A stretch of DNA of 64,000 bases from Escherichia coli (GTDB taxonomy: Bacteria; Pseudomonadota; Gammaproteobacteria; Enterobacterales; Enterobacteriaceae). The notes under the pieces are model-generated. The model worked only from the letters and a program-made list of their open reading frames with translations, did not search any database and was not told where the DNA came from. The stretch lies in assembly GCF_024502345.1 (NCBI RefSeq), contig NZ_JALDNN010000001.1. One strand, written 5' to 3'. The first letter of the stretch is position 1; every line of letters begins with the position of its first letter. The position numbers were made by a program, and so were the translations under genes. Shown piece by piece: positions 9,844-52,979 of the stretch.

Positions 9844-11018
9844 TTTGTGTGGTCCATAATATTTTTCATGGGAGGATAAATTGAGCCAGATGGAATGGCC
9901 CAGGGAGTGATTTTGCTTTCACCTACTAATATTCCCTTAGCTATTCGTGATTGCATGTTAGTAAAAACTTTATGATATGGTTCGTTTTCGATTAATACTA
10001 AATTTTCGAAATCATTAGTACCACCATCATCTAGAGATAGTTTATGGTGAACATTATAATTTAGAGGAGCATTGCCCTTTCTCATTCTTAAAAGGTCTTC
10101 GGCGTTGAATCTTCCAGATGCTTCGGAGGTTTTTGCAAGTTTGATAAGAAAATTTTTTCTTACAGTTTTATTAAACTCCTTTCGTAAGTTAGCTAAGTCT
10201 TTTGAAGGTCTCTTAATGTATATTATTTCTATTATGTCTATACCATCAAGAAGTTTTTGTTGACCTCTAAGTTTGCCTAAGTAACTATTTATTTCTGTAT
10301 ATGTATCAACATTAGAACGCTTTGTTAAAAGAATAGATGCTGTTGCTATCGCTATGCCCGCTGTTTTTTCATTTAGTATTTGATCATAGCCTTTTATTGC
10401 ATCTCCACCCAGTTTTTCCGCAGTATCTCTGAATCCTTCAATGTTCCCATTGTATACGCCACCAGCAGCAAGTAGCCTGCCAATAGCTTTGCTGTTTAAC
10501 GTTTTGAAACGATTATTTGTTTGGTTTTTTGAATTTGGTAAAAACAAACGGTTATAATTTTCAGGGAGTGCCAAATAGCTGAACTCGGTATTTGCGATAA
10601 GATGTTGACAGAGGATAAATTCATAACTAATAGTTATTGTTTCTGTATCCAGTTGGTTTTCAATGATCTGGTGATGAATAGCCGATAAAAAAGCGCCTCT
10701 TAGTTGTATATAATAATACTTTTCCAATCTACCAAATCTATTTATTCGATAGAAGTCAAATCCCATAAATAATTGTTCATTATTGTTAATGGAATTAATA
10801 AATAATGGAGTGCTTTTATCAATTAATTTACAAAATGTTATACCATGGAACTGTGAACCAAGCCCCGTATTATTAATATTATTTAAGAGTGAGAATGTAA
10901 ATATTTCATCCTCATGCCCGCTCTGCCAACGATTACCTGTAGACTCAGAAGTCCCACAACCTGCGGAGATGCTTCCTTGTTGTTCTCCCGTTACTGTCAG
11001 GTAAACAATATTACTCAT
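9840..11018 (-). CDS. yhhZ: Hcp-family protein with C-terminal HNH/colicin-DNase-like nuclease domain (Hcp-ET type polymorphic toxin, YhhZ)
   Basis: 392 aa. The N-terminal roughly 150 aa (MSNIVYLTVTGEQQGSISAGCGTSE...GHEDEI...) resemble Hcp/T6SS tube protein. The C-terminus carries NVHHKLSLDDGGTNDFENLVLIENEPYHK, matching the HH...GG...D..N...H pattern of colicin E9-type HNH DNases. Low G+C. Confidence 0.85.
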   Translation of the reverse strand: MSNIVYLTVTGEQQGSISAGCGTSESTGNRWQSGHEDEIFTFSLLNNINNTGLGSQFHGITFCKLIDKSTPLFINSINNNEQLFMGFDFYRINRFGRLEKYYYIQLRGAFLSAIHHQIIENQLDTETITISYEFILCQHLIANTEFSYLALPENYNRLFLPNSKNQTNNRFKTLNSKAIGRLLAAGGVYNGNIEGFRDTAEKLGGDAIKGYDQILNEKTAGIAIATASILLTKRSNVDTYTEINSYLGKLRGQQKLLDGIDIIEIIYIKRPSKDLANLRKEFNKTVRKNFLIKLAKTSEASGRFNAEDLLRMRKGNAPLNYNVHHKLSLDDGGTNDFENLVLIENEPYHKVFTNMQSRIAKGILVGESKITPWAIPSGSIYPPMKNIMDHTK

Positions 11019-11250
11019 CCCTGAAAAGTCCTTTTATGGCATGCTATTTTATCAATGGCAATATTATGCTTGTTAATTGTTATTTATTTACTCCAGGAAA
11101 TTGTAGGCGTATATATTAAAAAAATATTACACTTTAGGAAGTAATTATGAGTTAAATCTCAATATATGTATTGGGCAAATAAATACCTTAAAGGAAGGTA
11201 TGTCGATTTTGAATGACACCCTTTTTCCATCTCAGAAAAAGGGCACTATC

Positions 11251-15815: not shown

Positions 15816-17156
15816 GTGACTACATTAACGCTTGTTTTAACAGCAGTAGGGTCTGTTTTACTGCTGCTGTTTTTAGTCATGAAGGCGCGTATGCACGCTT
15901 TCCTGGCTTTGATGGTGGTGTCCATGGGGGCTGGCCTTTTTTCCGGTATGCCGCTCGATAAAATCGCAGCGACGATGGAAAAAGGGATGGGAGGCACCCT
16001 CGGCTTCCTGGCGGTGGTTGTCGCCCTGGGAGCTATGTTTGGCAAGATCTTACATGAAACCGGCGCAGTCGATCAGATTGCCGTCAAAATGCTCAAATCC
16101 TTCGGTCACAGCCGCGCGCATTATGCCATCGGCCTTGCGGGGTTGGTCTGTGCGCTACCGCTGTTCTTTGAAGTGGCGATAGTTCTGCTGATTAGCGTTG
16201 CTTTCTCAATGGCGCGCCACACCGGTACGAACCTGGTGAAGCTGGTAATCCCATTATTCGCAGGCGTGGCGGCAGCGGCGGCGTTCCTGGTGCCAGGGCC
16301 AGCGCCAATGCTGCTGGCATCGCAGATGAACGCCGATTTTGGCTGGATGATCCTGATTGGCCTGTGTGCGGCAATTCCGGGAATGATTATTGCCGGGCCG
16401 CTGTGGGGTAATTTCATCAGCCGCTACGTGGAGTTGCATATTCCTGACGACATCAGCGAACCGCATCTCGGCGAAGGCAAAATGCCATCTTTCGGATTCA
16501 GCCTGTCGCTGATCCTGTTGCCGCTGGTGCTGGTGGGGCTGAAAACCATTGCCGCGCGTTTTGTGCCAGAAGGCTCTACCGCTTACGAATGGTTCGAGTT
16601 TATTGGTCATCCGTTTACCGCGATTCTGGTTGCTTGTCTGGTAGCGATTTATGGCCTGGCAATGCGTCAGGGCATGCCAAAAGACAAAGTGATGGAGATT
16701 TGCGGTCACGCGCTGCAACCGGCGGGGATCATTCTGCTGGTGATTGGTGCAGGCGGCGTGTTCAAACAGGTGCTGGTTGACTCTGGCGTAGGTCCGGCAC
16801 TGGGCGAAGCGTTAACTGGCATGGGCCTGCCGATTGCTATCACCTGCTTCGTGCTGGCAGCTGCAGTGCGCATCATTCAGGGTTCTGCCACCGTAGCCTG
16901 TTTAACGGCGGTAGGACTGGTGATGCCGGTTATTGAACAACTGAACTACTCCGGTGCGCAAATGGCGGCGCTGTCGATTTGTATCGCTGGTGGTTCGATT
17001 GTTGTCAGCCACGTTAACGACGCCGGTTTCTGGTTGTTCGGTAAATTTACCGGCGCGACCGAAGCCGAAACGCTGAAAACCTGGACCATGATGGAAACCA
17101 TCCTCGGCACTGTCGGTGCCATCGTTGGGATGATTGCGTTCCAGCTGTTGAGTTAA
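15816..17156 (+). CDS. gntU: Low-affinity gluconate transporter (GntP family), GTG start
   Basis: 446-aa polytopic ORF starting GTG at 15816, 4 nt after the gntK stop. Confidence 0.9.
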   Translation: MTTLTLVLTAVGSVLLLLFLVMKARMHAFLALMVVSMGAGLFSGMPLDKIAATMEKGMGGTLGFLAVVVALGAMFGKILHETGAVDQIAVKMLKSFGHSRAHYAIGLAGLVCALPLFFEVAIVLLISVAFSMARHTGTNLVKLVIPLFAGVAAAAAFLVPGPAPMLLASQMNADFGWMILIGLCAAIPGMIIAGPLWGNFISRYVELHIPDDISEPHLGEGKMPSFGFSLSLILLPLVLVGLKTIAARFVPEGSTAYEWFEFIGHPFTAILVACLVAIYGLAMRQGMPKDKVMEICGHALQPAGIILLVIGAGGVFKQVLVDSGVGPALGEALTGMGLPIAITCFVLAAAVRIIQGSATVACLTAVGLVMPVIEQLNYSGAQMAALSICIAGGSIVVSHVNDAGFWLFGKFTGATEAETLKTWTMMETILGTVGAIVGMIAFQLLS

Positions 17157-17165
17157 GTTTGTTCG

Positions 17166-17196
17166 CCCGGTAGTTGTGACACTACCGGGTTCTTTT
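17166..17196 (+). terminator. Rho-independent terminator after gntU
   Basis: Stem cccggtagt / actaccggg (17166-17174 and 17181-17189), 6-nt loop, then ttctttt. Confidence 0.65.
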
Positions 17197-17212
17197 CGAA
17201 AAACTCTCCTCG

Positions 17213-17806
17213 TTACCCCTTCATCCACATTCGAATGCCGTCGAGGAACATCTGGGTTGCCATCATCACCAGAATCAATCCCATCAGGCGTTCAAGTGCG
17301 TTCACCCCTTTCTCGCCCAGCAGACGTAAAAATAGCGAAGACTGTAGCAGGATGACAAAGGTGCCGCCCCAGGCCAGCAGCAGAGCAATCACCAGATGTC
17401 CCATCTGATTCGGGTACTGATGAGACAACAACATCAGCGTGGCGAGAATAGTCGGCCCGGCGACTAACGGAATTGCCAACGGCACGATAAATGGCTCTTC
17501 ACCTGCCGGAAGCCCGCTGCTATTTCCTGAAGCGCTGGGGAAAATCATCTTAATGGCGATTAGAAACAGAATGATGCCGCCAGAAATGGAGACGGTTTCT
17601 GCTCGCAGGCTGAGAAATGCCAGAATTTTCTCACCCGCAAACAGGAACACCAGCATCACCAGGAGAGCAATAAGCAACTCTCGCACCATGATTGCCCGCC
17701 GTCTTTTCGGTTCAGTATGTTTCAGTACGGACATGAAAATAGGCAGGTTTCCGAGCGGATCCATAATCAGGATCAATAAAACTGCTGCAGAAATGATTTC
17801 ATTCAT
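17213..17806 (-). CDS. yhgN: UPF0056/MarC-family inner membrane protein YhgN
   Basis: 197-aa hydrophobic ORF; synteny between gntU and asd. Confidence 0.9.
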   Translation of the reverse strand: MNEIISAAVLLILIMDPLGNLPIFMSVLKHTEPKRRRAIMVRELLIALLVMLVFLFAGEKILAFLSLRAETVSISGGIILFLIAIKMIFPSASGNSSGLPAGEEPFIVPLAIPLVAGPTILATLMLLSHQYPNQMGHLVIALLLAWGGTFVILLQSSLFLRLLGEKGVNALERLMGLILVMMATQMFLDGIRMWMKG

Positions 17807-28858: not shown

Positions 28859-30376
28859 ATGGAAAGAATAATGCAAAACAGAAAATGGATTTTGTCCTCG
28901 CTGGTAATGACTTTTTTCGGCATCCCCATACTGACGCAATTTTTGGCGGCGGTTGTTGCTATGCTGGGTGTCGGACTTGCCGGTATTATTGAAGTTTGTA
29001 ATATCCTTATCACGCCAACAAGTTACCTTCTGCTCAACATTTTTATGCTGGCGCTGGGCGCATTAATGCTATTTTTCTCGGGGCGAGTATGGGCAGGCGA
29101 TAGTGCACCAGAAAAAAGAGAAATAGCCGTCTGGCGACAATGTCTTTTTTTAGTACCCGGTTTATTAATCCTGGTTGGCTGGATAATCGCGCTGCATCTG
29201 GCAGATTATCAATTTCACCAGATGGGATCGGGTTGGTTGGCTGATCTTATGCTCCCCTGGCTGGGCGTTTTGTTAGTCTCAGTAGTCGGAGGTGAGTACT
29301 GGTGGATAGTCATTATACCCGTTGGCGCGCATATCAGTTTTTCGCTGGGGTACGGCCGGCCAACCAGACATCCTTTAACCGGTACATCCGGGCTACGTTG
29401 CCGTAATTCCCTCCTGTTTATCCTTCTCATGCTTGGTTTTGTCGCTGGTTATCAGGGTTATTTATATAAACAGCTCAATCCCGGCGTCGGTGTGCGCGAA
29501 AATATTGATACCTGGGCCTGGCGACCCGATAAACTCAATAATCAACTGACACCACTGCGTGGTAAACCGCAAATTCAGTTTACGCAAAACTGGCCGCGAC
29601 TCGATGGTGCTACGGCGGCGTACCCAATTTATGCCTCTGCATTTTATGCTTTAAGCGTTATACCGGAAGATTTTCACACCAGGGAATATCTGGAGAGCTC
29701 TCGTACCCCCGATGCGTATAACAGGATTGTTAAAGGTGATGCTGATAGTATTTTTGTGGCGCAACCTTCCGGTGGGCAGAAAAAACGCGCTGAGGAATCG
29801 GGCGTTACTTTGCTGTACACGCCTTTTGCCCGTGAAGCGTTTGTTTTCATCGTCAATGCGGATAATCCGGTTAATTCCCTGACTGAACAACAGGTGCGTG
29901 ACATCTTCAGTGGTGCAATTACCAACTGGCGTACTGTTGGCGGTAACGATCAGGAGATCCAGACCTGGCAACGCCCGGAAGACTCTGGTAGCCAGACGGT
30001 GATGCAATCCCAGGTCATGAAAAATGTCCGCATGATCTCGCCGCAGGAAACAGAAGTGGCAAGTATGATGGAGGGAATGATTAAAGTCGTTGCCGAATAC
30101 CGTAATACAAACAACTCAATAGGTTACACCTTCCGTTATTACGCAACACAAATGAACGCCGATAAAAATATAAAACTGCTAGCGATTAACGGTATTGCAC
30201 CGACTGCCGAAAACATTCGCAACGGCAAATATCCCTATATCGTCGATGCCTTTATGGTAACGCGGGAAAATACGATGTCAGAGACACAAAAATTGTTGGA
30301 GTGGTTTTTAACGCCGCAGGGACAGAGTTTGGTGGAAGATGTAGGTTATGTCCCGATGTATAAGACGCTACCTTAA
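28859..30376 (+). CDS. Membrane-anchored protein: N-terminal polytopic domain fused to a C-terminal PstS-fold periplasmic-binding-protein-like domain; function unknown
   Basis: 505 aa. Residues 1 to about 190 contain several hydrophobic helices. The C-terminal half carries PstS-family motifs (LTEQQVRDIFSGAITNWRTVGG; RPEDSGSQ; IGYTFRYY; LLAINGIAPTAENIRNGKYPY; VGYVPMY). Alternative start ATG 28871. As I recall, K-12 keeps only a short pseudogene remnant (yzgL) at this position. Confidence 0.8.
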   Translation: MERIMQNRKWILSSLVMTFFGIPILTQFLAAVVAMLGVGLAGIIEVCNILITPTSYLLLNIFMLALGALMLFFSGRVWAGDSAPEKREIAVWRQCLFLVPGLLILVGWIIALHLADYQFHQMGSGWLADLMLPWLGVLLVSVVGGEYWWIVIIPVGAHISFSLGYGRPTRHPLTGTSGLRCRNSLLFILLMLGFVAGYQGYLYKQLNPGVGVRENIDTWAWRPDKLNNQLTPLRGKPQIQFTQNWPRLDGATAAYPIYASAFYALSVIPEDFHTREYLESSRTPDAYNRIVKGDADSIFVAQPSGGQKKRAEESGVTLLYTPFAREAFVFIVNADNPVNSLTEQQVRDIFSGAITNWRTVGGNDQEIQTWQRPEDSGSQTVMQSQVMKNVRMISPQETEVASMMEGMIKVVAEYRNTNNSIGYTFRYYATQMNADKNIKLLAINGIAPTAENIRNGKYPYIVDAFMVTRENTMSETQKLLEWFLTPQGQSLVEDVGYVPMYKTLP

Positions 30377-30460
30377 AGCTGGATAATAAAAATGGAATTA
30401 GTTAATACATTATTTGCAAGCCTTGCCGGTACTGATCCCTTCACAGGCGTGGATATTACG

Positions 30461-30469
30461 ATTGCCAAC
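30461..30469. repeat. 9-bp target-site duplication (left copy) attgccaac
   Basis: Identical to 31527..31535, directly flanking the IS termini. Confidence 0.85.
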
Positions 30470-30487
30470 GGCTTTGTTGAATAAATC
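30470..30487. repeat. IS903 terminal inverted repeat (18 bp)
   Basis: ggctttgttgaataaatc; exact reverse complement is found at 31509..31526. Confidence 0.9.
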
Positions 30488-30525
30488 AGATTTCGGGTAA
30501 GTCTCCCCCGTAGCGGGTTGTGTTT

Positions 30526-31449
30526 TCAGGCAATACGCACGCTTTCAGGCATACCTGCTTTCGTCATTTTGTTCAGCGCTCGTACCAGGGCCATAGCCTC
30601 TGCAACCTGACCATCGTAGTCACGCAGTGTCAGTGAACCCCCGAACAGCTGTTTTACCCGGTACATCGCCGTTTCCGCTATCGAGCGACGGTTGTAATCT
30701 GTTGTCCATTTCCACCGCGCATTACTCCCGGTCATTCGCTGATTAGCCACTGCACGGTTACGGTCTGCATATTCACCGGGCCAGTAACCCGCACCTTTTC
30801 GGGGAGGGATAAGCGCGCTGATTTTCTTACGCCGCAGTTCATCGTGACATAGCCGGGTATCGTAAGCGCCATCGGCGGCGGCTGACCTGATTTTCCGGTG
30901 GGTTTGCCGGATTAACCCGGGGAAGGCCTCTGAGTCCGTAACGTTGTTCAGCGACAGGTCAGCGCAGATGATTTCATGTGTTTTACTGTCAACGGCGAGA
31001 TGCAGCTTACGCCAGATACGGCGGCGTTCCTGGCCATGCTTTTTGACTTTCCACTCGCCTTCACCGAAGACCTTCAGCCCGGTGGAATCAATTACCAGGT
31101 GTGCGATTTCACCCCGGGTGGGCGTTTTGAAACTGACATTAACCGACTTTGCCCGCCTGCTGACACAGCTGTAATCCGGGCAGCGTAGCGGAACGTTCAT
31201 CAGAGAAAAAATGGAATCAATAAAGCCCTGCGCAGCGCGCAGGGTCAGCCTGAATACGCGTTTAATGACCAGCACAGTCGTGATGGCAAGGTCAGAATAG
31301 CGCTGAGGTCTGCCTCGTGAAGAAGGTGTTGCTGACTCATACCAGGCCTGAATAGCTTCATCATCCAGCCAGAAAGTTATGGAGCCACGGTTGATGAGGG
31401 CTTTATTGTAGGTGGGCCAGTTGGTGATTTTGAACTTTTGCTTTGCCAC
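30526..31449 (-). CDS. IS903 transposase (DDE, IS5 family)
   Basis: ORF track 30526..31494 (TTG); probable GTG start at 31449 giving 307 aa beginning MAKQKFKITNWPTYNKALINRGS..., which matches my recollection of the IS903 transposase; also ...LVIDSTGLKVFGEGEWKVKKHG.... Confidence 0.9.
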   Translation of the reverse strand: MAKQKFKITNWPTYNKALINRGSITFWLDDEAIQAWYESATPSSRGRPQRYSDLAITTVLVIKRVFRLTLRAAQGFIDSIFSLMNVPLRCPDYSCVSRRAKSVNVSFKTPTRGEIAHLVIDSTGLKVFGEGEWKVKKHGQERRRIWRKLHLAVDSKTHEIICADLSLNNVTDSEAFPGLIRQTHRKIRSAAADGAYDTRLCHDELRRKKISALIPPRKGAGYWPGEYADRNRAVANQRMTGSNARWKWTTDYNRRSIAETAMYRVKQLFGGSLTLRDYDGQVAEAMALVRALNKMTKAGMPESVRIA

Positions 31450-31508
31450 GGAACGGTCTGCGTTGTCGGGAAGATACGTGATCTGATCCTTCAACTCAGC
31501 AAAAGTTC

Positions 31509-31526
31509 GATTTATTCAACAAAGCC
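31509..31526. repeat. IS903 terminal inverted repeat (18 bp, other end)
   Basis: gatttattcaacaaagcc = reverse complement of 30470..30487. Confidence 0.9.
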
Positions 31527-31535
31527 ATTGCCAAC
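31527..31535. repeat. 9-bp target-site duplication (right copy) attgccaac
   Basis: Identical to 30461..30469. Confidence 0.85.
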
Positions 31536-32170
31536 TGCAAATCGGCATACTGGGATGAAGGCATTGTTCAGCAACTTATTAACCAGGCCCTGGATGAAGG
31601 GGAAAAGTTCGTCGGTGCTGACGGTCTTGAGGGATTGCTTCGATATGATGTCACATTAAATATTGGCTTAACCTCCAGCAAGGTATGGCCGGGATTTTCC
31701 CTCGATACCGCCACCATTAGCCGTCTTTGTGCCTGTGGTGCTGATTTTGGATTTGACCCCTATATCAGTGATGTACCAGATGTTCAATGTGACCTGAACA
31801 CGACAAATGACGTCACCGTACAATTTACGGCGATGCTAAATCCGGATGAGCGGGTGATAATAGCAAAGCGCCCGCTTAAAAAATGTGACTCCTGGATTGA
31901 GGATGTCTATATCTTTCAGGTCTTAAAAGATGCCTGGAAATTTCATAACAATAACAGTTTACGCGGATTTCGCGATAAGCAGGCCGAACTGAAACTCTAC
32001 ACGCGTCATTACTCAGTGGAAAATTGCGCAGAGGAAAGCTGTCGAGACTGCAATAGTTGCATTCGCCCCAGCTTTTCCCTTTCGCGTAGCGCCCTTATTC
32101 GCCTGAACGCGGCGAATGCTCGTTTTGTCTATCAACCGTTTACACGCGATCAGCGGGCGAGGGGGTAACT

Positions 32171-32938
32171 ATGCAACCCAGCCCTGCCATGCAGGCATTA
32201 ATTGAGCAGATTTATCACACCTTTCGTCGTTATCGGGTGCCGCAGAAATTTGTGGTTTGTTGTGAATATTGCCTGAGTCAGCAGGAACAAAAGGCATTAC
32301 GGAGTACATCGTTACGAGCGATCCCGTATTCCTTAATCAATGCCTGGAATAGTAGCCCAGGGCCTGATCCGCAAAATAGCGATGAGGTCCGCTATTTTCT
32401 GCCGCGTTTACTGGAATTTGTTGCACAGGGGCATTTTGACAATATTCACGTAGTTTTTTCTCTGCGCCGTATCAACCTTGCCAACAAAGAAAACTGGCGT
32501 GCGGATGAACGGGCAATTTTACAGCGATTTGCCTGCCAGTATATGACTGATTGGGTATCCGGCGATGAAGCTGTCGAATTACAGTATATGCTGGAAATGT
32601 TTTTCCGTGCCGATATCGCTCTTGCGCCATTGCTGGATGCCATTAATTCAGTTCCCGGCTTTTGGTCGACCGTTTCTCTTGCCTGTTTATTGAACAGATA
32701 TTGTGAGGATTATATCAGAGATAACCAGGACGATATCGATAACGCCATTACCACCCAAATCAATGCCTGGGCTAGAAATAATCATCCTTTACTGAAAGAA
32801 AGAGCGCGGCAAGCGATTGAGAACCCGCTAAAACAGCCCGAACCAATGACAGAATATCATGTCTGGGAAGATGACTGGATAATTGATGAGTGTTTATGCG
32901 CGATGTATGACGCATCATCCGAATCACCAGGAAAATAA
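32171..32938 (+). CDS. Third islet gene, hypothetical protein (255 aa), no recognisable motif
   Basis: ORF starts 2 nt after the stop of the preceding gene; soluble-looking; no family recognised by eye. Confidence 0.7.
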   Translation: MQPSPAMQALIEQIYHTFRRYRVPQKFVVCCEYCLSQQEQKALRSTSLRAIPYSLINAWNSSPGPDPQNSDEVRYFLPRLLEFVAQGHFDNIHVVFSLRRINLANKENWRADERAILQRFACQYMTDWVSGDEAVELQYMLEMFFRADIALAPLLDAINSVPGFWSTVSLACLLNRYCEDYIRDNQDDIDNAITTQINAWARNNHPLLKERARQAIENPLKQPEPMTEYHVWEDDWIIDECLCAMYDASSESPGK

Positions 32939-32940
32939 AA

Positions 32941-33546
32941 ATGATTAAATTCCGGCTTTATATTCCCCCTGTAATTCTCGGTTTTGTTATCGTGCCATTA
33001 TTGGTATGGCCGACGGTTATTGTCTTAGCCGTACTTATATTCACGTTAACTTTTCTGGCAGAAATAATATTCTCCTTTCCGCTCCTGGTTGTACGTATTT
33101 CTCTTCAGGAATTACAACTTGAGTTAATGGTTGAATATGCACTTTTTTTCAGTGTAATGGCTGGCATCGGTTGGCAATTCTCCCGCAGAACGCCTCCTGA
33201 ATTAAAAAACAGACTGCATTGCTGGCTGGTCTTTTCGCCGGTCTATTTCTGGTTAATTCTCTCGAATTTCATTCTTTATATTTCTCCAGAGAAATCAGCG
33301 TTGCTGGAAAATATCCGAAATTTCTTTCTGACGTTTGTCTGGCCTCCCCTGAATTTTTCCCCTTTTTGGCCGCAGCCTTGGACTGATTTTGTCGGCCCGA
33401 TTAGTGCACAGCTTGGTTTTGCATTGGGATATTATTGCCATTGGTGCAGAAAAAATAGAAACCAGAGGAAGAAGTGGGGCGATTGGGTAACGTGCTTAAG
33501 TTTGGCGATTTTAGCTCAGGGGCCGTTATTCAATTATTTACAATGA
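32941..33546 (+). CDS. Fourth islet gene, small multi-pass membrane protein (201 aa), function unknown
   Basis: ORF starts 2 nt after the stop of the third gene; several hydrophobic segments (VILGFVIVPLLVWPTVIVLAVLIFTLTFLAEIIF; WLVFSPVYFWLILSNFILYI); lowest G+C of the islet by eye. Confidence 0.7.
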   Translation: MIKFRLYIPPVILGFVIVPLLVWPTVIVLAVLIFTLTFLAEIIFSFPLLVVRISLQELQLELMVEYALFFSVMAGIGWQFSRRTPPELKNRLHCWLVFSPVYFWLILSNFILYISPEKSALLENIRNFFLTFVWPPLNFSPFWPQPWTDFVGPISAQLGFALGYYCHWCRKNRNQRKKWGDWVTCLSLAILAQGPLFNYLQ

Positions 33547-33567
33547 ATAGTCTAAGGAATCCAAATA

Positions 33568-33590
33568 GCCCGGTTGCACTTCAACCGGGC
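33568..33590. terminator. Perfect hairpin between the convergent islet operon and glpD
   Basis: Stem gcccggttg / caaccgggc (9 bp) with 5-nt loop; lies between the stop of the fourth islet gene (33546) and the glpD stop (33598); no strong U-tract. Confidence 0.45.
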
Positions 33591-33597
33591 ATCATCC

Positions 33598-35103
33598 TTA
33601 CGACGCCAGCGACAACTTCTGCTGCGTATATTCCACCAGCCACTGACTCACACGAGATTGTTGATCCGCATTCAGCCACATGCCTTGTTTTGTGCGACGC
33701 CAAAGGGCATCGTCGGTGCGGCGGACCCATTCGTGATCCACCAGGTATTTCAGTTCCGCTTCGTAGAACTCATGACCGAAATCCTCCCCGAGGTCGCTTA
33801 TCGCCCCCGCATTGCCGAGCAGCAGCTCGCTGTTGCTGCCGTAAGTGCGTGCGTAATGACGCGCCAGCGATTCAGTCAGGAATGGATAGCGACGGCGCAG
33901 ACGAGCTGCGTAATCGTCGCGGTCGCCTTCAATGGCACCACCCGGCAGCACGCTCTCTTTCGTCCATGCCGGGCCAATGCCCTGATAATACGGCGTCAGT
34001 TTTTCCAGCGCATGTTCCGCCAGTTTGCGGTAGGTGGTCAACTTACCGCCGAATACCGACAGCAGCGGTGCTTTGCCGTTTTCATCATGGATATCAAGGG
34101 TGTAATCACGGGTAATAGCCTGCGGCGAGTCGGACTCATCATCACACAGCGGACGCACACCGGAGTAGGTCCAGACGATATCGTCACGGCTTAACTGCTT
34201 TTTAAAGTGCGTGTTATACACTTTCAGCAGGTAATTGATTTCACTCTCTTCAATCTTCACCGCTTTCGGATCGCCTTTGTATTCCACATCGGTGGTGCCG
34301 ATGATGGAAAACTCGTCCATCCACGGGATCACGAACACAATGCGTTTATCTTCGTTTTGCAGAATGTAGGCCTGCTTTTGGGTATGCACGCGCGGCACCA
34401 CAATATGGCTGCCTTTGATCAGGCGAATGCCATAAGGCGAAGGCAGATGCATCCCGTCGTCGAAGAACTGTTTCACCCACGGGCCGGTGGCGTTAACCAA
34501 GCCGCGCGCTTGCCAGCTATATTTTTTGCCGGTATCGATATCTTCCGCTTCCACAATCCACAGGCCGTTTTCGCGGCGAGCAGAGGTGGCGCGAGTCCGA
34601 GTAAGCACTTCGCCGCCTTTACGCACCACCATCTGGGCGTTGGCGAGTACCAGACGGGCGTCGTCTACCCAACAGTCAGAATATTCGAATCCGCGCTTAA
34701 TTTCCGGTTTTAACACTGAATTTGCGCCAAAACGCAAACCGGTTGATCCCGGCAGGCTGGTGCGTTTACCCAGATGATCGTACATAAACAGACCAATGCG
34801 AATCATCCACGCCGGGCGCAGATGCGGACGATGTGGCAGGCGAAAACGCATCGGGAAGGCGATATGCGGAGCCATTTTCAGCAGCACTTCACGTTCAGCC
34901 AGCGCCTCGCTGACCAGGCGGAATTCATAGTGCTCAAGGTAGCGCAGGCCACCGTGAATGAGTTTTGAACTGGCGGAAGAGGTCGCGCAAGCGAGATCCT
35001 GCGCCTCCAGCATCAGCACGGATAAACCGCGTCCAGCGGCGTCTGCCGCGATACCAGCACCATTGATGCCGCCACCTATCACAATCAGATCTTTGGTTTC
35101 CAT
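33598..35103 (-). CDS. glpD: Aerobic sn-glycerol-3-phosphate dehydrogenase
   Basis: ORF track 33598..35118; start set at ATG 35103 (METKDLIVIGGGINGAGIA...), 501 aa; FAD-binding GGGINGAG. Confidence 0.95.
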   Translation of the reverse strand: METKDLIVIGGGINGAGIAADAAGRGLSVLMLEAQDLACATSSASSKLIHGGLRYLEHYEFRLVSEALAEREVLLKMAPHIAFPMRFRLPHRPHLRPAWMIRIGLFMYDHLGKRTSLPGSTGLRFGANSVLKPEIKRGFEYSDCWVDDARLVLANAQMVVRKGGEVLTRTRATSARRENGLWIVEAEDIDTGKKYSWQARGLVNATGPWVKQFFDDGMHLPSPYGIRLIKGSHIVVPRVHTQKQAYILQNEDKRIVFVIPWMDEFSIIGTTDVEYKGDPKAVKIEESEINYLLKVYNTHFKKQLSRDDIVWTYSGVRPLCDDESDSPQAITRDYTLDIHDENGKAPLLSVFGGKLTTYRKLAEHALEKLTPYYQGIGPAWTKESVLPGGAIEGDRDDYAARLRRRYPFLTESLARHYARTYGSNSELLLGNAGAISDLGEDFGHEFYEAELKYLVDHEWVRRTDDALWRRTKQGMWLNADQQSRVSQWLVEYTQQKLSLAS

Positions 35104-35214
35104 GCTGCCCTCATTCACTTTCGTTAAAGCTCATAAATGTTCGTTATCGAACATATTAGCAAAGAATCGCCCTTTAGGTAACATTGAAAAAACATTTTAG
35201 AGTGATATGTATAA

Positions 35215-35619
<405 letters not shown>

Positions 35620-35651
35620 CGCTTTATACTGTCCCCTTTTGTGTGGAATAA

Positions 35652-36494
<843 letters not shown>

Positions 36495-36510
36495 TTCCAG
36501 GGATTTATAA

Positions 36511-37269
36511 ATGAAACAAACACAACGTCACAACGGTATTATCGAACTGGTTAAACAGCAGGGTTATGTCAGTACTGAAGAGCTGGTAGAGCATTTCTCC
36601 GTCAGCCCGCAGACTATTCGCCGCGACCTCAATGAGCTGGCGGAGCAAAACCTGATCCTGCGTCACCATGGCGGTGCGGCGCTGCCTTCCAGTTCGGTTA
36701 ACACGCCGTGGCACGATCGTAAAGCCACCCAGACCGAAGAAAAAGAGCGTATTGCCCGCAAAGTGGCGGAGCAAATCCCCAACGGCTCGACGCTGTTTAT
36801 CGATATCGGCACCACCCCGGAAGCGGTGGCGCACGCGCTGCTTAATCACAGCAATTTGCGCATTGTCACCAACAATCTCAACGTCGCTAACACGTTGATG
36901 GTAAAAGAAGATTTTCGCATTATTCTCGCCGGTGGCGAATTACGTAGCCGCGATGGTGGGATCATAGGTGAAGCGACGCTCGATTTTATCTCCCAGTTCC
37001 GCCTTGATTTCGGCATTCTGGGGATAAGCGGCATCGATAGCGACGGCTCGCTGCTGGAGTTCGATTACCACGAAGTTCGCACCAAACGCGCCATTATTGA
37101 GAACTCGCGCCACGTTATGCTGGTTGTCGATCACTCGAAATTTGGCCGTAACGCGATGGTCAATATGGGCAGCATCAGCATGGTAGATGCCGTCTACACC
37201 GACGCCCAGCCGCCAGTAAGCGTGATGCAGGTGCTGACGGACCACCATATTCAACTGGAGCTGTGCTGA
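36511..37269 (+). CDS. glpR: glp regulon repressor (DeoR family)
   Basis: 252-aa ORF; DeoR-type HTH (RHNGIIELVKQQGYVSTEELVEHF); its 3' end overlaps the rtcR 3' end by 19 bp (convergent). Confidence 0.95.
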   Translation: MKQTQRHNGIIELVKQQGYVSTEELVEHFSVSPQTIRRDLNELAEQNLILRHHGGAALPSSSVNTPWHDRKATQTEEKERIARKVAEQIPNGSTLFIDIGTTPEAVAHALLNHSNLRIVTNNLNVANTLMVKEDFRIILAGGELRSRDGGIIGEATLDFISQFRLDFGILGISGIDSDGSLLEFDYHEVRTKRAIIENSRHVMLVVDHSKFGRNAMVNMGSISMVDAVYTDAQPPVSVMQVLTDHHIQLELC

Positions 37270-38849
37270 TCCTGCAATGCTTCCCAGGTCAGACCAAAAC
37301 GCGCCAGGTATTTGCGTAGCCGATCCGCGTCATTGACGCTGGCTTTGCCCTGGCGCGAAACATCAAAAAGCTGTCGTCCGGCAGCAGAAAGCGACTTTGC
37401 CTGGCGGCAGATAGCGATAACGTGTTCCAGTTGCATACGGTCGAAGAGATCGATGTTTTCTGCCTCTGCGCCCAGCAACGCCGTAAGCGCGGAGGGGCGG
37501 CTCTCCTGCCAGTTAAAGCGCAGACGGTTTATCTCATCTTCAACCACGTCCAGAGTAATGCGTCCGCTAGAGGCAAAGGTTGCCATTCGCGTGACGCTGG
37601 CAGAAAGCTCGCGAAAGTTACCGCGCCATGTTGCCTGGGGAGATGTCGCAAAGGCCAGCCAGGCGCGCCGCGCTTCGGTGTTAAAACGCACGCTGTCGCC
37701 GGTGAGTGAAGCGTGGCGCTCCACTTCATAATCCAGGTTAGGTTCAATATCTTCCTGGCGCTGGCGTAGCCCCGGCAGGGTGAAGGTCCAGAGATTGATC
37801 CGCGCGTACAGGTCTTCGCGAAATTTTCCTTCGGCAACCAGCTGGCGCAAATCACGCACCGTTCCGGCGATAAGCTGAAAATCACTGCTCACCTGGCGAT
37901 CGCTGCCAAACGGATAAAAGGTTTTTTCTTCAATGGCTTTAAGCAGCATTGCCTGTTCGTCTGCGCCCAGTTCGCCAATCTCATCAAGAAACAACATTCC
38001 ACCGTTGGCGCTACGTAATAATCCTTCACGGGATTCCCGCGCCCCGGTAAACGCGCCTTTTACATGACCAAACAGCGTCGACATGGCGGTATCGCCGCGC
38101 AGGGTTGCGCAGTTCACTTCCACAAACGCGCCGCTAAACTGATGCCGCGCCTGTTTTAATTCAAATATACGTCGCGCCAGAAATGACTTGCCCGCACCGG
38201 TTGGGCCGTTTAGCAGGATCGGTGCGCGGGATTTAATCGCCACTTTTTCAATCTGCTCAATCATGCGGTTGAAGTGCGGGTTACGCGTGGCAATGCCGGA
38301 CTTAAGAAAATCAAGCGTTTGCTGGCGTTCCTCGGCAAAGCGGCTGGCGATGGCGTTATAACGGCTTAAATCGAGATCGATAATCGTCACTTCACCTGCG
38401 CCGCGCGGCTGTTCTTTTTTGCGCGGAGGTGAAGATTGTATCAACCGGGCGGGCAGGTAACGCGCTTCCGCCAGCAGAAACCAGCAAATCTGCGCGACGT
38501 GGGTGCCGGTGGTGATGTGAATTAAATAGTCTTCTTTTTCTGGCTGAAACTCGTAACCACGGGCGAAATCATGCAGGCAGGCGTAAACCTCTTCGAAATC
38601 CCACGGGTTATGCAGTTCAATCTCAACGCTCACCACTTCTGTTTCTGGCGAAACGCTGGCGATATCGCGTTTAAGCGTTTCAAATAGCGAGCGCGAGCGG
38701 GCGTCATGCAATAATTCCAGTCGATCGATGACCAACGATTCTTGCTGGCATAAACAGAGTGTCGGACGCCATTTCGACCAGCGCTGACTGCCGCGCCCGG
38801 CATAATCCAGCACCGTTCCGACAAAGCCAAAAGCCACTGTTTTACGCAT
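37251..38849 (-). CDS. rtcR: Sigma54-dependent transcriptional activator of rtcBA
   Basis: 532-aa ORF; AAA+ sigma54-interaction motifs (GPTGAGKS; GAFTGA); divergent from rtcBA. Confidence 0.9.
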
Positions 38850-38983
38850 CTTAGATATCCTTATAAAAGACGATATTTCATTATCGGTGAATTGGTTTTG
38901 TGGAAAATCTCCGTTTACGGACGTAAAGATTTAACCTATTTAAAAACAATGAATTAAAAAATTAATCTGCTTATTTAATTTTC

Positions 38984-38999
38984 TGGCACGACGGTTGCA
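38984..38999 (+). promoter_or_regulatory. Sigma54 (-24/-12) promoter for rtcBA
   Basis: tggcacgacggttgca = TGGCAC-N5-TTGCA consensus, about 40 bp upstream of the rtcB ATG. Confidence 0.65.
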
Positions 39000-39037
39000 A
39001 TTATCACGACAGCAAACAACGAAAAGAGAAAAACAAA

Positions 39038-40264
39038 ATGAATTACGAATTACTGACCACTGAAAATGCCCCGGTAAAAATGTGGACCAAAGGCGTGCCG
39101 GTAGAAGCCGATGCGCGTCAGCAACTTATTAATACGGCGAAGATGCCGTTTATTTTCAAACATATTGCGGTAATGCCTGATGTACACCTGGGTAAAGGTT
39201 CCACCATTGGTAGCGTGATCCCGACCAAAGGGGCGATTATTCCGGCGGCGGTGGGCGTGGATATTGGCTGTGGAATGAACGCGCTGCGTACCGCGTTAAC
39301 GGCGGCAGACCTGCCTGAAAACCTGGCAGAGCTGCGTCAGGCGATTGAAACTGCGGTGCCGCACGGACGTACCACTGGCCGTTGTAAACGTGATAAAGGC
39401 GCATGGGAAAACCCGCCTGTTAACGTCGATGCGAAATGGGCTGAGCTTGAAGCCGATTATCAGTGGTTAACGCAAAAATATCCGCGTTTCCTTAACACTA
39501 ACAACTATAAACACCTGGGAACGCTGGGAACGGGTAACCACTTTATTGAAATCTGCCTTGATGAGTCGGACCAGGTGTGGATTATGCTGCACTCCGGTTC
39601 ACGCGGAATTGGTAACGCCATCGGGACTTACTTTATCGATTTGGCACAAAAAGAGATGCAGGACCAGCTTGAAACGTTGCCATCGCGCGACCTGGCGTAC
39701 TTTATGGAAGGTACGGAATACTTTGATGATTACCTAAGAGCCGTGGCCTGGGCGCAGCTTTTCGCCAGCCTTAACCGCGATGCGATGATGGAAAACGTGG
39801 TAACGGCGTTGCAGAGCATTACGCAGAAAACGGTCAGACAGCCACAAACGCTGGCGATGGAAGAGATCAACTGTCACCACAACTATGTGCAAAAAGAACA
39901 GCACTTTGGTGAAGAGATCTACGTGACGCGTAAAGGCGCGGTGTCTGCGCGTGCTGGTCAATATGGAATTATTCCCGGTTCGATGGGAGCAAAAAGCTTT
40001 ATCGTCCGTGGGCTGGGAAATGAAGAGTCGTTCTGTTCGTGCAGCCACGGTGCCGGGCGGGTAATGAGCCGTACTAAAGCGAAAAAACTGTTCAGCGTGG
40101 AAGATCAAATTCGTGCTACCGCGCATGTGGAATGCCGTAAAGATGCCGAAGTGATCGACGAAATCCCGATGGCGTATAAAGATATTGATGCGGTGATGGC
40201 GGCACAAAGCGATCTGGTGGAAGTTATCTACACCCTGCGTCAGGTGGTGTGCGTAAAAGGATAA
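39038..40264 (+). CDS. rtcB: RNA-splicing ligase RtcB
   Basis: 408-aa ORF recalled as RtcB; divergent from rtcR. Confidence 0.95.
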   Translation: MNYELLTTENAPVKMWTKGVPVEADARQQLINTAKMPFIFKHIAVMPDVHLGKGSTIGSVIPTKGAIIPAAVGVDIGCGMNALRTALTAADLPENLAELRQAIETAVPHGRTTGRCKRDKGAWENPPVNVDAKWAELEADYQWLTQKYPRFLNTNNYKHLGTLGTGNHFIEICLDESDQVWIMLHSGSRGIGNAIGTYFIDLAQKEMQDQLETLPSRDLAYFMEGTEYFDDYLRAVAWAQLFASLNRDAMMENVVTALQSITQKTVRQPQTLAMEEINCHHNYVQKEQHFGEEIYVTRKGAVSARAGQYGIIPGSMGAKSFIVRGLGNEESFCSCSHGAGRVMSRTKAKKLFSVEDQIRATAHVECRKDAEVIDEIPMAYKDIDAVMAAQSDLVEVIYTLRQVVCVKG

Positions 40265-41284
<1,020 letters not shown>

Positions 41285-41326
41285 TGTAAAGATGTAAGCC
41301 GGATCCAATGCATTATCCGGCTAAAC

Positions 41327-44038
<2,712 letters not shown>

Positions 44039-44530
44039 TCACTTCACTGTGGAAAATGAGGAAATATTATTTTTTTTTGCGCTTCGTAATTAATGGTTAT
44101 AAGGTCGGCCAGAAACCTTTCTAATGCAAGCGATGACGTTTTTTTATGTGTCTGAATTTGCACTGTGTCACAATTCCAAATCTTTATTAACAACTCACCT
44201 AAAACGACGCTGATCCAGCGTGAATACTGGTTTCCCTTATGTTCATCAGATTCATTTAAGCAAGGGTTTCTTCTTCATTCCTGATGAAAGTGCCATCTAT
44301 AAAGATGATCTTAATAAATCTATTAAGAATGAGATGGAGCACACTGGATATTTTACTTGTGAAACTGTTTCACTCCTTTACTTAATTTATAGAGTTACCT
44401 TCCGCTTTTTGAAAATACGCAACGGCCATTTTTTGCACTTAGATACAGATTTTCTGCGCTGTATTGCATTGATTTGCTGCTAATCCTGTGGTTTGCACTA
44501 GCTTTAAGTGGTTGAGATCACATTTCCTTG

Positions 44531-44576
44531 CTCATCCCCGCAACTCCTCCCTGCCTAATCCCCCGCAGGATGAGGA
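44531..44576 (+). promoter_or_regulatory. malPQ promoter region with MalT boxes
   Basis: Three copies of the MalT box GGA(T/G)GA in the two orientations: ctcatccccg, ctcctccc and ggatgagga (44568-44576), about 70-110 bp upstream of the malP ATG. Confidence 0.55.
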
Positions 44577-44620
44577 AGGTCAACATCGAGCCTGGCAAAC
44601 TAGCGATAACGTTGTGTTGA

Positions 44621-47038
<2,418 letters not shown>

Positions 47039-47047
47039 GGAAGCTCG

Positions 47048-49132
47048 ATGGAAAGCAAACGTCTGGATAATGCCGCGCTGGCGGCGGGGATTAGCCCCAA
47101 TTACATCAATGCCCACGGTAAACCGCAGTCGATTAGCGCCGAAACCAAACGGCGTTTGCTTGACGCGATGCATCAACGTACCGCCACGAAAGTGGCGGTA
47201 ACGCCAGTCCCGAATGTCATGGTTTATACCAGCGGCAAAAAAATGCCGATGGTGGTGGAGGGCAGCGGCGAATATAGCTGGCTGCTGACCACCGAAGAAG
47301 GAACACAGTACAAAGGCCATGTAACGGGGGGCAAAGCGTTCAATCTACCGACGAAGTTGCCGGAAGGTTATCACACGCTGACACTCACCCAGGACGACCA
47401 GCGCGCGCATTGCCGGGTGATTGTCGCCCCGAAACGCTGTTACGAACCGCAGGCGTTGCTGAATAAACAAAAGCTGTGGGGTGCCTGCGTTCAGCTTTAT
47501 ACGCTGCGATCGGAAAAAAACTGGGGTATTGGGGATTTTGGCGATCTCAAAGCGATGCTGGTGGATGTGGCAAAACGTGGCGGGTCGTTCATCGGCCTGA
47601 ACCCGATTCATGCGCTCTATCCGGCAAATCCGGAGAGTGCCAGCCCATACAGCCCGTCTTCTCGCCGTTGGCTGAATGTGATTTATATCGACGTTAACGC
47701 CGTTGAAGATTTCCATCTTAGCGAAGAGGCTCAGGCCTGGTGGCAGTTGCCGACCACGCAACAGACGCTGCAACAGGCGCGCGATGCCGACTGGGTCGAT
47801 TACTCCACGGTTACCGCCCTAAAAATGACAGCATTACGAATGGCGTGGAAAGGTTTCGCGCAACGTGATGATGAGCAGATGGCCGCGTTTCGCCAGTTTG
47901 TTGCAGAGCAGGGCGACAGCCTGTTCTGGCAGGCAGCCTTTGATGCGCTACATGCCCAGCAAGTGAAAGAGGACGAAATGCGCTGGGGCTGGCCTGCATG
48001 GCCAGAGATGTATCAGAACGTGGATTCACCAGAAGTGCGTCAGTTCTGCGAAGAACATCGTAATGACGTCGATTTTTATCTCTGGTTGCAGTGGCTGGCT
48101 TACAGCCAGTTTGCCGCCTGCTGGGAGATAAGCCAGGGCTATGAAATGCCGATTGGCTTGTATCGTGATCTGGCGGTTGGCGTAGCGGAAGGTGGGGCGG
48201 AAACCTGGTGTGACCGTGAACTATATTGCCTGAAAGCGTCGGTTGGCGCGCCGCCGGATATCCTCGGCCCGTTGGGGCAGAACTGGGGATTACCGCCAAT
48301 GGACCCGCATATCATCACCGCGCGTGCCTATGAACCGTTTATCGAGCTGTTGCGTGCCAATATGCAAAACTGCGGCGCATTACGAATTGACCATGTGATG
48401 TCGATGCTGCGTTTGTGGTGGATACCGTATGGCGAGACGGCAGATCAGGGCGCGTATGTTCACTATCCGGTGGATGATCTGCTCTCGATTCTGGCACTCG
48501 AAAGTAAACGTCATCGCTGTATGGTGATTGGTGAAGATCTCGGTACCGTACCGGTAGAGATTGTCGGTAAGCTGCGCAGCAGCGGTGTGTACTCCTACAA
48601 AGTGCTCTATTTCGAAAACGACCACGAGAAGACGTTCCGTGCACCGAAAGCGTATCCGGAGCAGTCGATGGCGGTTGCGGCGACACATGACCTGCCTACG
48701 CTACGCGGCTACTGGGAGAGCGGGGATCTAACGCTGGGCAAAACCCTGGGGCTGTATCCGGATGAAGTGGTACTGCGCGGTCTGTATCAGGATCGCGAAC
48801 TGGCGAAGCAAGGGCTGCTGGATGCACTGCATAAATATGGTTGTCTGCCAAAACGTGCCGGGCATAAGGCATCGTTGATGTCGATGACGCCGACGCTGAA
48901 CCGTGGTTTGCAGCGCTACATTGCCGACAGTAACAGTGCTCTGTTAGGACTACAGCCGGAAGACTGGCTGGATATGGCCGAACCGGTGAATATTCCTGGC
49001 ACCAGTTACCAGTATAAAAACTGGCGACGCAAGCTTTCCGCAACGCTTGAGACGATGTTTGCCGATGATGGCGTGAACAAGTTGCTGAAGGATTTGGACA
49101 GACGGCGCAGAGCTGCAGCGAAGAAGAAGTAG
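47048..49132 (+). CDS. malQ: 4-alpha-glucanotransferase (amylomaltase)
   Basis: 694-aa ORF immediately after malP. Confidence 0.95.
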   Translation: MESKRLDNAALAAGISPNYINAHGKPQSISAETKRRLLDAMHQRTATKVAVTPVPNVMVYTSGKKMPMVVEGSGEYSWLLTTEEGTQYKGHVTGGKAFNLPTKLPEGYHTLTLTQDDQRAHCRVIVAPKRCYEPQALLNKQKLWGACVQLYTLRSEKNWGIGDFGDLKAMLVDVAKRGGSFIGLNPIHALYPANPESASPYSPSSRRWLNVIYIDVNAVEDFHLSEEAQAWWQLPTTQQTLQQARDADWVDYSTVTALKMTALRMAWKGFAQRDDEQMAAFRQFVAEQGDSLFWQAAFDALHAQQVKEDEMRWGWPAWPEMYQNVDSPEVRQFCEEHRNDVDFYLWLQWLAYSQFAACWEISQGYEMPIGLYRDLAVGVAEGGAETWCDRELYCLKASVGAPPDILGPLGQNWGLPPMDPHIITARAYEPFIELLRANMQNCGALRIDHVMSMLRLWWIPYGETADQGAYVHYPVDDLLSILALESKRHRCMVIGEDLGTVPVEIVGKLRSSGVYSYKVLYFENDHEKTFRAPKAYPEQSMAVAATHDLPTLRGYWESGDLTLGKTLGLYPDEVVLRGLYQDRELAKQGLLDALHKYGCLPKRAGHKASLMSMTPTLNRGLQRYIADSNSALLGLQPEDWLDMAEPVNIPGTSYQYKNWRRKLSATLETMFADDGVNKLLKDLDRRRRAAAKKK

Positions 49133-49144
49133 AGTGCGGTTGAT

Positions 49145-49165
49145 GCCGGATGCGATGCATCCGGC
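49145..49165. repeat. REP-like palindrome / bidirectional terminator between convergent malQ and gntT
   Basis: gccggatgc gat gcatccggc: perfect 9-bp stem with 3-nt loop. Confidence 0.5.
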
Positions 49166-49176
49166 AGTCAGTGTTA

Positions 49177-50493
49177 TCAAATCACCATATTCAGCAGCAG
49201 ACAGCCTACCAGACCGCACACCGAGATAATGGTTTCCAGCATCGACCAGGATTTGATGGTCTCGCCGATAGTCAGGTTAAAGTACTCTTTGAACAGCCAG
49301 AAGCCTGGATCGTTCACATGAGAGAAAATCACACTACCGGAACCAACCGCAATAACCATTAGCTCCGGGCTAACACCCGTCGTTGCAATCAGCGGTGCCG
49401 CGATACCACCCGCAGTGATTGCCGCAACGGTTGCGGAACCCAGCGCGATACGCAGTACGGCAGCAATCGACCAGGCCATCAGCAGCGGAGAAATGTTGGT
49501 TTCGTGCATCATGGAAGCAATGTATTTGTCCACGCCGCTGTCTACCAGCACCTGCTTGAACGCACCGCCACCACCGATGATCAACAGCATCATCGCAATG
49601 ATTTTGATGGAAGAAACCAGCGTGTCGTTAATCTGATCCATTGAACGACCACGGTTTAGACCAAAGGTGAACATCGCAATCAGCACGGCAATCAGCGTAG
49701 CCATTACCGGGTCACCGAGGAACTCCGCTACCGGCAGGAAAGCGTGACCTTTCGGCAGGATCATTTCGGCAATCGCACGCATCGCCATCAGTACTACCGG
49801 CACCAGAGAGGTCCAGACGCTGACGCCAAAGCTCGGCATCTCTTCTTCGCTGAAGGTTTTCGCGCTGTAGAGACCTTCCGGAATTGGCTTATCGATACCT
49901 TTCAACACGCGAGCGTAAACCGGACCGGCGAGAATCACGGTCGGGATTGCCAGAATAGTACCGTACAGCAGGGTTTTACCCATGTCGGCATTGAAAATGG
50001 TGGCAATCGCAGTCGGACCCGGATGCGGTGGCAGGAAGCCGTGGGTCACAGACAGTGCAGCTGCCATTGGTACACCAACATACAGCAGTGGAATATTCGC
50101 AGAAGCCGCGATGGTAAACACCAGCGGCAGCATCAGCACAAAGCCCACTTCATAGAACAGGGCAAAACCAACGGTAAAACCGGTCAGTACCACCGCCCAC
50201 TGGATGTGTTTTTTACCAAATTTGGCAATCAGCGTGGTGGCGATACGTTGTGCGCCACCGCAGTCTGCCAGCATTTTGCCCAGCATTGCGCCAAAACCCA
50301 TGATCAGGGCAAGGCTACCGAGCGTCCCGCCGACACCGGCTTTGATGGAGCCAATAACTTTATCCAGCGGCATTCCTTGCATTAATCCAACAGCAAGCGC
50401 CACGAGGACGAGAGCGATGAAGCCGTTCATTTTGAAGCGGATCATCAGGAGTAATAACAAGATTACACCGATAGCAACAATGACTAATGGCAT
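49177..50493 (-). CDS. gntT: High-affinity gluconate transporter (GntP family)
   Basis: 438-aa polytopic ORF; paralogous to gntU in this window. Confidence 0.95.
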   Translation of the reverse strand: MPLVIVAIGVILLLLLMIRFKMNGFIALVLVALAVGLMQGMPLDKVIGSIKAGVGGTLGSLALIMGFGAMLGKMLADCGGAQRIATTLIAKFGKKHIQWAVVLTGFTVGFALFYEVGFVLMLPLVFTIAASANIPLLYVGVPMAAALSVTHGFLPPHPGPTAIATIFNADMGKTLLYGTILAIPTVILAGPVYARVLKGIDKPIPEGLYSAKTFSEEEMPSFGVSVWTSLVPVVLMAMRAIAEMILPKGHAFLPVAEFLGDPVMATLIAVLIAMFTFGLNRGRSMDQINDTLVSSIKIIAMMLLIIGGGGAFKQVLVDSGVDKYIASMMHETNISPLLMAWSIAAVLRIALGSATVAAITAGGIAAPLIATTGVSPELMVIAVGSGSVIFSHVNDPGFWLFKEYFNLTIGETIKSWSMLETIISVCGLVGCLLLNMVI

Positions 50494-50513
50494 GATTTAC
50501 CTGGCCTTTCATT

Positions 50514-50669
50514 TGTTATGGGTAACGTCAATTTTCTGACGACAAGCTCTAATTATCCCAATCGGGAACAGAGATATTGCGGCACCACGACTGATACCCA
50601 CTAAAACTAATTATTGTAGTCAGATGTCAGGAGTATGTTTGGTACCCATGTGAATGATACGGGTAACAT
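50514..50669 (-). promoter_or_regulatory. gntT promoter region with two GntR-operator-like sites
   Basis: tgttatgggtaacgtca (50514-50530) and atgatacgggtaacat (50654-50669) both contain the gttacccgtaac-type core seen in the gntK operator. Confidence 0.4.
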
Positions 50670-50797
50670 CTGGCGTTTGAGAATCACCAGAGCGGGGTAA
50701 ATTTAAATTATGAGAGGTTGGTCATATTATCGCGGGGAAACGAAGGGAGGGATTTGCCAAAGCAATGCTGCGCCAACGTCTGGCACATGTTCAACGT

Positions 50798-50853
<56 letters not shown>

Positions 50854-51429
50854 TTAGTAGTAGGAGTGTTCGCCGCGCTGGTGTTCGGTGAGATCGCGCA
50901 CACCTTTCAGCTCCGGGAATTCGTTTAGCAGCTGCTTCTCGATCCCTTCTTTCAGCGTCACATCGACCATGGAACAACCGTTACAGCCGCCGCCAAATTG
51001 CAGAATGGCGTAACCGTCTTCGGTGATTTCCATCAGTGAAACGCGACCACCGTGACCAGCAAGCTGTGGGTTGATCTGCGACTGCAGCATATACTCCACG
51101 CGCTCCATCAGTGGTGCATCGTCTGCCACTTTACGCATTTTGGCGTTAGGCGCTTTCAGTGTTAGCTGAGAACCCAACTGGTCGGTAACAAAATCGATCT
51201 CTGCATCTTCCAGGTAAGGAGCGCTTAACTCATCAACATACGCGGTCAGCAGGTCAAATTTCAGGGCAGTGTCGGTGGCTTCCACGGCATCCGGCGGACA
51301 ATAAGAAACACCACATTCAGCGTTAGGCGTGCCAGGGTTAATCACAAATACGCGGATTTGTGTCCCTTCTTCCTGGTTTGCCAGCAGTTTGGCAAAGTGC
51401 GCTTGTGCAGCATCGGAAATACGGATCAT
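50854..51429 (-). CDS. nfuA: Fe-S cluster biogenesis/carrier protein NfuA
   Basis: 191-aa ORF; C-terminal Nfu CxxC (GGGCNGCSM). Confidence 0.9.

Positions 51430-51487: not shown

Positions 51488-52979
<1,492 letters not shown>

Follow-up and report, generated by a model that had tools for sequence, protein, structure and literature searches.

The 64,000-nucleotide stretch of DNA analysed here (the window) is a livF-to-pckA segment of the E. coli chromosome, and it harbors a complete copy of the insertion sequence IS903B that we regard, with very little doubt, as a simple insertion into that chromosome, directly behind the 26th codon of a YbbD-family gene lying between glgP and glpD. The element occupies positions 30470–31526 on the minus strand (1057 bp) and is 100% identical to records annotated as IS903B. 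By sequence comparison it is a member of the IS5 family and, within it, of the IS903 group, isoform IS903B, this being an assignment at the level of the isoform and not one of exact identity to the type copy. An earlier note, made from the letters of the window alone, had proposed an IS903-family element at this place; the proposal is upheld and can now be sharpened to family, group, and isoform.

The anatomy of the element is that of an intact insertion sequence. The earlier note had described an element of 1057 bp bounded by perfect 18-bp inverted repeats and flanked by an exact direct repeat at 30461–30469 and 31527–31535, and re-inspection reproduced both the terminal and the direct repeats. 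The sequence GGCTTTGTTGAATAAATC at 30470–30487 on the plus strand has its exact reverse complement at 31509–31526 (18/18), and the similarity between the two ends stops at base 18. Since the transposase is encoded on the minus strand, the transposase-proximal repeat, IRL, lies on the right in the numbering of the window (31509–31526, reading GGCTTTGTTGAATAAATC on the minus strand), and the transposase-distal repeat, IRR, is the one at 30470–30487. Outside these, the 9-bp target-site duplication ATTGCCAAC directly abuts both element ends (9/9), an agreement with a chance probability at fixed positions of 4^-9, or ~4e-6; its left copy (30461–30469) constitutes codons 24–26 (I-A-N) of the target gene, and its right copy (31527–31535) begins where the element ends. 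A scan of the window with the terminal 18-mer, allowing at most 3 mismatches (shuffled sequences lead one to expect 0.07 matches per window), recovered both element ends and one further site matching at 16/18 positions (46042–46059). We considered the latter as a third IS end and rejected it as a chance match, as it lies inside the malP frame with no partner end and no IS-like surroundings. Between IRL and the transposase start lie two GATC (Dam) sites (31480–31488, minus strand; IS positions 39 and 44), a pair that we take to fit the reported Dam sensitivity of IS903. When the two ends of the IS were scanned by consensus for promoters or terminators directed outward, no more sites appeared than in shuffled sequences, and IRL had no promoter facing outward; no Rfam families were found around the insertion site.

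The single DDE transposase ORF of 307 aa from GTG, as originally read, is likewise confirmed: it runs on the minus strand from a GTG start at 31449 to a stop at 30526 (IS coordinates 78–1001), without an internal stop in its 307 codons. An alternative upstream TTG at 31494 would give a 322-aa form, and the start choice in RefSeq varies accordingly, some records carrying the 322-aa form (WP_000654812.1) and others the 307-aa form (WP_001118619.1); the exact 307-aa and 322-aa proteins are each found on at least 1000 contigs. The protein is recovered by the NCBIfam model NF033579 with a score of 357 bits (cut-off, 140), the other NCBIfam IS5-family models giving weak secondary matches, and by the Pfam models PF13737 DDE_Tnp_1_5 (4e-39) and PF01609 DDE_Tnp_1 (7e-33). 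It contains D121, D193, and E259, which we take to be the catalytic residues established by IS903 mutagenesis, and the spacing Y252-x2-R255-x3-E259-x6-K266, i.e., the Y-2-R-3-E-6-K signature.

The chromosomal setting allows the insertion to be compared with its empty counterpart. The window is colinear with the chromosome of E. coli O121 RM8352 at 98.3–99.3% identity, and, apart from differences of a few bases, departs from it only in a 1066-bp insertion (the IS together with one copy of the repeat) and in an indel of 64 bp located between malQ and gntT. In E. coli F8704-2 the site is empty and reads ...GATATTACGATTGCCAACTGCAAATCGG..., with a single ATTGCCAAC and no IS, and the flanks of the window element align to this genome at 99.7–99.9% while overlapping by exactly 9 bp. 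As ATTGCCAAC is single-copy in F8704-2, the duplication is real and not a coincidence. When the empty site was sought with a 305-bp reconstruction spanning the junction of genes 1 and 2 of the local cluster (coverage of at least 80%), 2,319 of the 5,426 complete E. coli genomes (~43%) proved to have it; conversely, none of these 5,426 genomes covered at least 80% of a 3-kb query containing the IS. An insertion with so many empty sites and no filled one is both real and young. The suggestion in the earlier note that the insertion is recent is thus borne out, also by the 100% identity of the element to copies elsewhere.

The same observations bear on whether the element was merely placed at the wrong locus by a repeat-resolved contig, an artefact to which we give almost no credence. 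Many E. coli genomes carry IS903B in several copies (those with any copy have it at a median of 2 places and at up to 47), and no other complete genome has an IS at this site, both of which are what such an error might lead one to see. However, a misjoin would not duplicate precisely 9 bp of host sequence, the length proper to IS903, next to both ends; moreover, the duplicated 9-mer is single-copy in the empty-site genomes and the flanks are colinear on both sides. We therefore retain the reading as a genuine insertion. No second IS copy, full or partial, was found within the 64-kb window.

Some further features of the surrounding chromosome may be recorded in their own right. The 64-bp indel relative to RM8352, at window position ~49157, adjoins a REP-like palindrome (GCCGGATGCGATGCATCCGGC). 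Identity to RM8352 drops stepwise along the window, from 99.34% (1–30469) through 98.74% (31527–49158) to 98.28% (49157–64000), in keeping with the mosaic that recombination usually makes of E. coli chromosomes. For window positions 6000–30469 the best match among complete genomes is at 99.7%, from which it follows that the source strain is absent from the complete-genome collection. At window ~9840–11020, located by colinearity with 9869–11047 of the reference, the annotation there is of a 392-aa Hcp1 family type VI secretion system effector (tssD), after which come yrhA, yrhD, and yrhB in the reference annotation of the colinear region.

The gene that received the insertion is the second of a cluster of four tightly packed genes between glgP and glpD (window 28859–33546). 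It is annotated as 'YbbD family protein / hypothetical protein' (WP_000424543.1) in both F8704-2 and RM8352 and encodes 236 aa, of which the first 26 codons now form a 5' fragment (30392–30469, plus strand) separated by the IS from a 3' fragment (31527–32168, plus strand). The interrupted frame reads 4 codons into the IS before meeting a stop (…IANGFVE*), giving a product of 30 residues; removal of the IS together with one repeat restores an intact gene with 1 aa different from WP_000424543.1. The transposase gene runs opposite to the genes of the cluster. The two genes that follow the interrupted one, coding for proteins of 255 aa and 201 aa (32171–33546, plus strand), are intact and separated by gaps of 2 bp, a packing that points to their probable co-transcription with the interrupted gene and hence to a likely polar effect of the insertion on both. 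The first gene of the cluster (28859–30376, plus strand) is intact in the window and codes for a 505-aa protein with a candidate PstS-type substrate-binding domain in its C-terminal part (residues 308–500; a sub-threshold match), its product being described as membrane-anchored and PstS-like; the same gene is annotated as frameshifted in RM8352.

As to what this cluster might do, a PADLOC search of it for defense systems gave no matches, the 255-aa and 201-aa proteins matched nothing in Pfam, NCBIfam, or PADLOC, and the 236-aa protein had one insignificant match in Pfam (E = 0.07). An assignment of the cluster to a defense system or of domains to its proteins was accordingly considered and set aside as unsupported by PADLOC and Pfam. 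It is conceivable, albeit quite improbable, that the insertion was selected because a knock-out of the cluster was advantageous, e.g., through the loss of phage or colicin entry or through relief from a costly system; such a history would parallel the disruption of mgrB or wbaZ by IS903B in Klebsiella.

How the element reached this site can be sketched from what is established for its relatives. In standard transposition chemistry, strand transfer to phosphates with a 9-bp stagger and the subsequent filling of the gaps produce a duplication of the target. For the window copy, the DDE transposase would have bound the two 18-bp terminal repeats in their inner part and cleaved the DNA at the outer tips, the 3' ends would have been joined to target phosphates staggered by 9 bp, and the repair of the two 9-nt gaps would have given rise to the ATTGCCAAC duplication. 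The donor would have been a further copy of IS903B, residing either on a plasmid or at a second chromosomal locus, and the outcome is a YbbD-family gene cut to a 30-aa peptide, with the two downstream genes probably affected by polarity. These steps draw on the bipartite organization of the IS903 ends, in which the inner part binds the transposase and the outer tip serves in cleavage, as related in PMC3299598 (citing Derbyshire et al., 1987; Derbyshire et al., 1992). The transposase itself is characterized, in the works of Derbyshire et al., 1990 and Derbyshire et al., 1996 as they are cited in PMC11677980, as preferentially cis-acting and unstable.

The route need not have been direct cut-and-paste. 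IS903 is known to yield simple insertions and cointegrates by alternative pathways and is described as mainly replicative (PMC7986276; PMC3003695), and identical copies of the present element abound on conjugative plasmids; hence, a replicative transposition from a plasmid, with the cointegrate then resolved by host recombination, is a possible course of events that we nevertheless consider doubtful. No plasmid remnant or second copy is present within 64 kb, as against such a replicative origin, although the end product would be the same by either route (a single copy bordered by a 9-bp duplication and by colinear flanks), so that the sequence is silent on the route taken.

Whether the copy can still move is a related issue. 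With the catalytic residues, the ends, and the ORF all intact, it is likely to be still mobile, as far as its sequence allows one to predict. The element is widely distributed: all 1057 of its 1057 bp are identical in many plasmid and chromosome copies from E. coli, Salmonella, Citrobacter, and Klebsiella, and such identity across genera speaks for a recent spread. Of the 5,426 complete E. coli genomes, 1,535 have a near-full-length copy. Among the best-matching copies in E. coli the allele seen here is the most frequent, and the best match reaches at least 99% in 1,059 records. Further, IS903B has been caught jumping in Klebsiella, where it disrupted mgrB and wbaZ (PMC10513040; PMC9769513; PMC8796155).

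Against this, one might hold that the copy is old, fixed, and no longer mobile, and that it only looks intact; the cis action and instability of the transposase, which keep IS903 activity low according to the references given in PMC11677980, would lend themselves to such a view. Age would, however, mean clade-wide sharing and accumulated differences, whereas the element has zero differences from copies in other genera, retains a perfect duplication together with intact catalytic residues and ends, and is absent at this site from the 5,426 complete E. coli genomes, 2,319 of which keep the site empty. We accordingly consider an old and inert copy very improbable and favor a young, likely mobile one.

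The insertion site was also examined in light of the target preference of IS903, for which Table 1 of PMC2577343 gives the motif WTTYA-N9-TRAAW, symmetric around the 9-bp duplication. The site in the window agrees at 7 of the 10 specified positions, placing it in the top 2.4% of window positions, with nearby positions scoring as well. Three other genuine sites, represented by four TSD-flanked copies, agree at only 3, 4, and 6 of the 10 positions. The motif thus discriminates weakly, and the insertion site is weakly compatible with it.

The flanks of other copies were inspected as well. Among six identical chromosomal copies, four have 9-bp duplications, and of the 15 other IS903-group copies that we inspected (loci L002, L006, L008 at 16718–17774, and L009–L020), 5 have a perfect 9-bp duplication and 10 do not, with two of the five duplication-bearing copies representing the same site in two strains. 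Several of the copies that lack a duplication abut truncated genes. IS903-group elements tend to cause adjacent deletions or to recombine, and the copies without a duplication suggest just such adjacent deletions or recombination between copies. Given that 10 of 15 copies lack it, the clean duplication in the window marks an unrearranged simple insertion.

For the assignment at the isoform level, we used as reference stand-ins the IS903.B copy of Rts1 (in Tn2680) and IS102 of pSC101. The gene order in Rts1 is IS26 / IS903B / aph(3')-Ia / IS26, which we take to be the arrangement of Tn2680, a transposon that, as we understand it, comes from Rts1. We further assume, from the title of the paper by Mollet et al. 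together with this origin of Tn2680, that the Rts1 copy is the ISfinder reference X02527. That title (Mollet et al., 1985), as listed in PMC7986276, names IS903.B in Tn2680. As tabulated in PMC8796155, the ISfinder record of IS903B (X02527) has 1057 bp and an ORF at 78–1001 coding for 307 aa, and the length and ORF coordinates of the window element equal these. The database copies identical to the element, like the identical protein in RefSeq, carry the annotation 'IS5-like element IS903B family transposase'. ISfinder practice is to recognize an isoform at ~95% amino acid identity or more, or at 90% nucleotide identity or more; the window element stands at 99.3% amino acid and 97.07% nucleotide identity to the Tn2680 IS903B copy of Rts1.

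The differences from the Rts1 copy are unevenly spread. Of the 31 nucleotide differences, 27 fall in one 172-nt patch at IS positions 506–677 (window 30850–31021), which is 84% identical to the IS903B of Rts1/Tn2680, while the remainder of the element is 99.5% identical, and most of the patch differences lie at third codon positions. A comparison of 8 isoforms showed two alleles of the patch whose distribution does not follow that of the remaining sequence, a pattern indicative of recombination between IS903-group isoforms. This indicates that the present IS903B allele is, in all likelihood, a mosaic whose patch was acquired by recombination with another IS903-group lineage.

Both the element and its configuration are already known, and what we describe is a textbook insertion sequence; the extras, namely the mosaic patch in the allele and the natural knock-out of an uncharacterized gene, are only mildly informative. 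The insertion is nonetheless of use as a clean, datable strain marker, its site being empty wherever it is present in the 5,426 complete E. coli genomes. On the clinical side, IS903B is relevant in Klebsiella, where its part in mgrB-mediated colistin resistance and capsule-gene-mediated phage resistance is well documented. Since it acts as a disrupter of genes in clinical strains, an intact chromosomal copy such as this one is a potential source of such mutations.

Set beside the known members of its family, the window element is closest to the IS903B of Rts1, with which it shares the length of 1057 bp, identical 18-bp repeats, and a 307-aa GTG ORF at 78–1001, with no indels between them; the Rts1 copy also has a 9-bp duplication, being flanked by CGTTGTGTC, and it differs from the window element, beyond the 31 nucleotides, at 2 amino acids (K156N and S189A). 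IS102 of pSC101 likewise has the same length, 18-bp repeats, and ORF layout without indels, but it differs from the window element at 78 nucleotides (92.6% identity) and 14 amino acids (95.4%), and its pSC101 copy, unlike the window element, has no flanking duplication. The 18-bp ends are identical in the window element, the IS903B of Rts1, IS102, and 5 further isoforms.

The prototype, IS903 of Tn903, which we compared by its published description, is also an element of 1057 bp with 18-bp repeats and a 9-bp duplication and codes for a 307-aa cis-acting transposase; the window protein has D, D, and E at the positions of the IS903 catalytic residues D121, D193, and E259. We considered a Tn903-type composite transposon for the window and rejected it, there being a single copy, with no partial one, within 64 kb, and flanks that are colinear chromosome; in contrast to the IS903 of Tn903, the window element is solitary and stands outside any composite transposon. 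At a greater distance, IS5, the type element of the family, has the transposase superfamily (DDE_Tnp_1) in common with the window element but belongs to a different group: IS5 is 1195 bp long and makes 4-bp duplications at YTAR targets, whereas the window element makes 9-bp duplications and has NF033579 as its best model.
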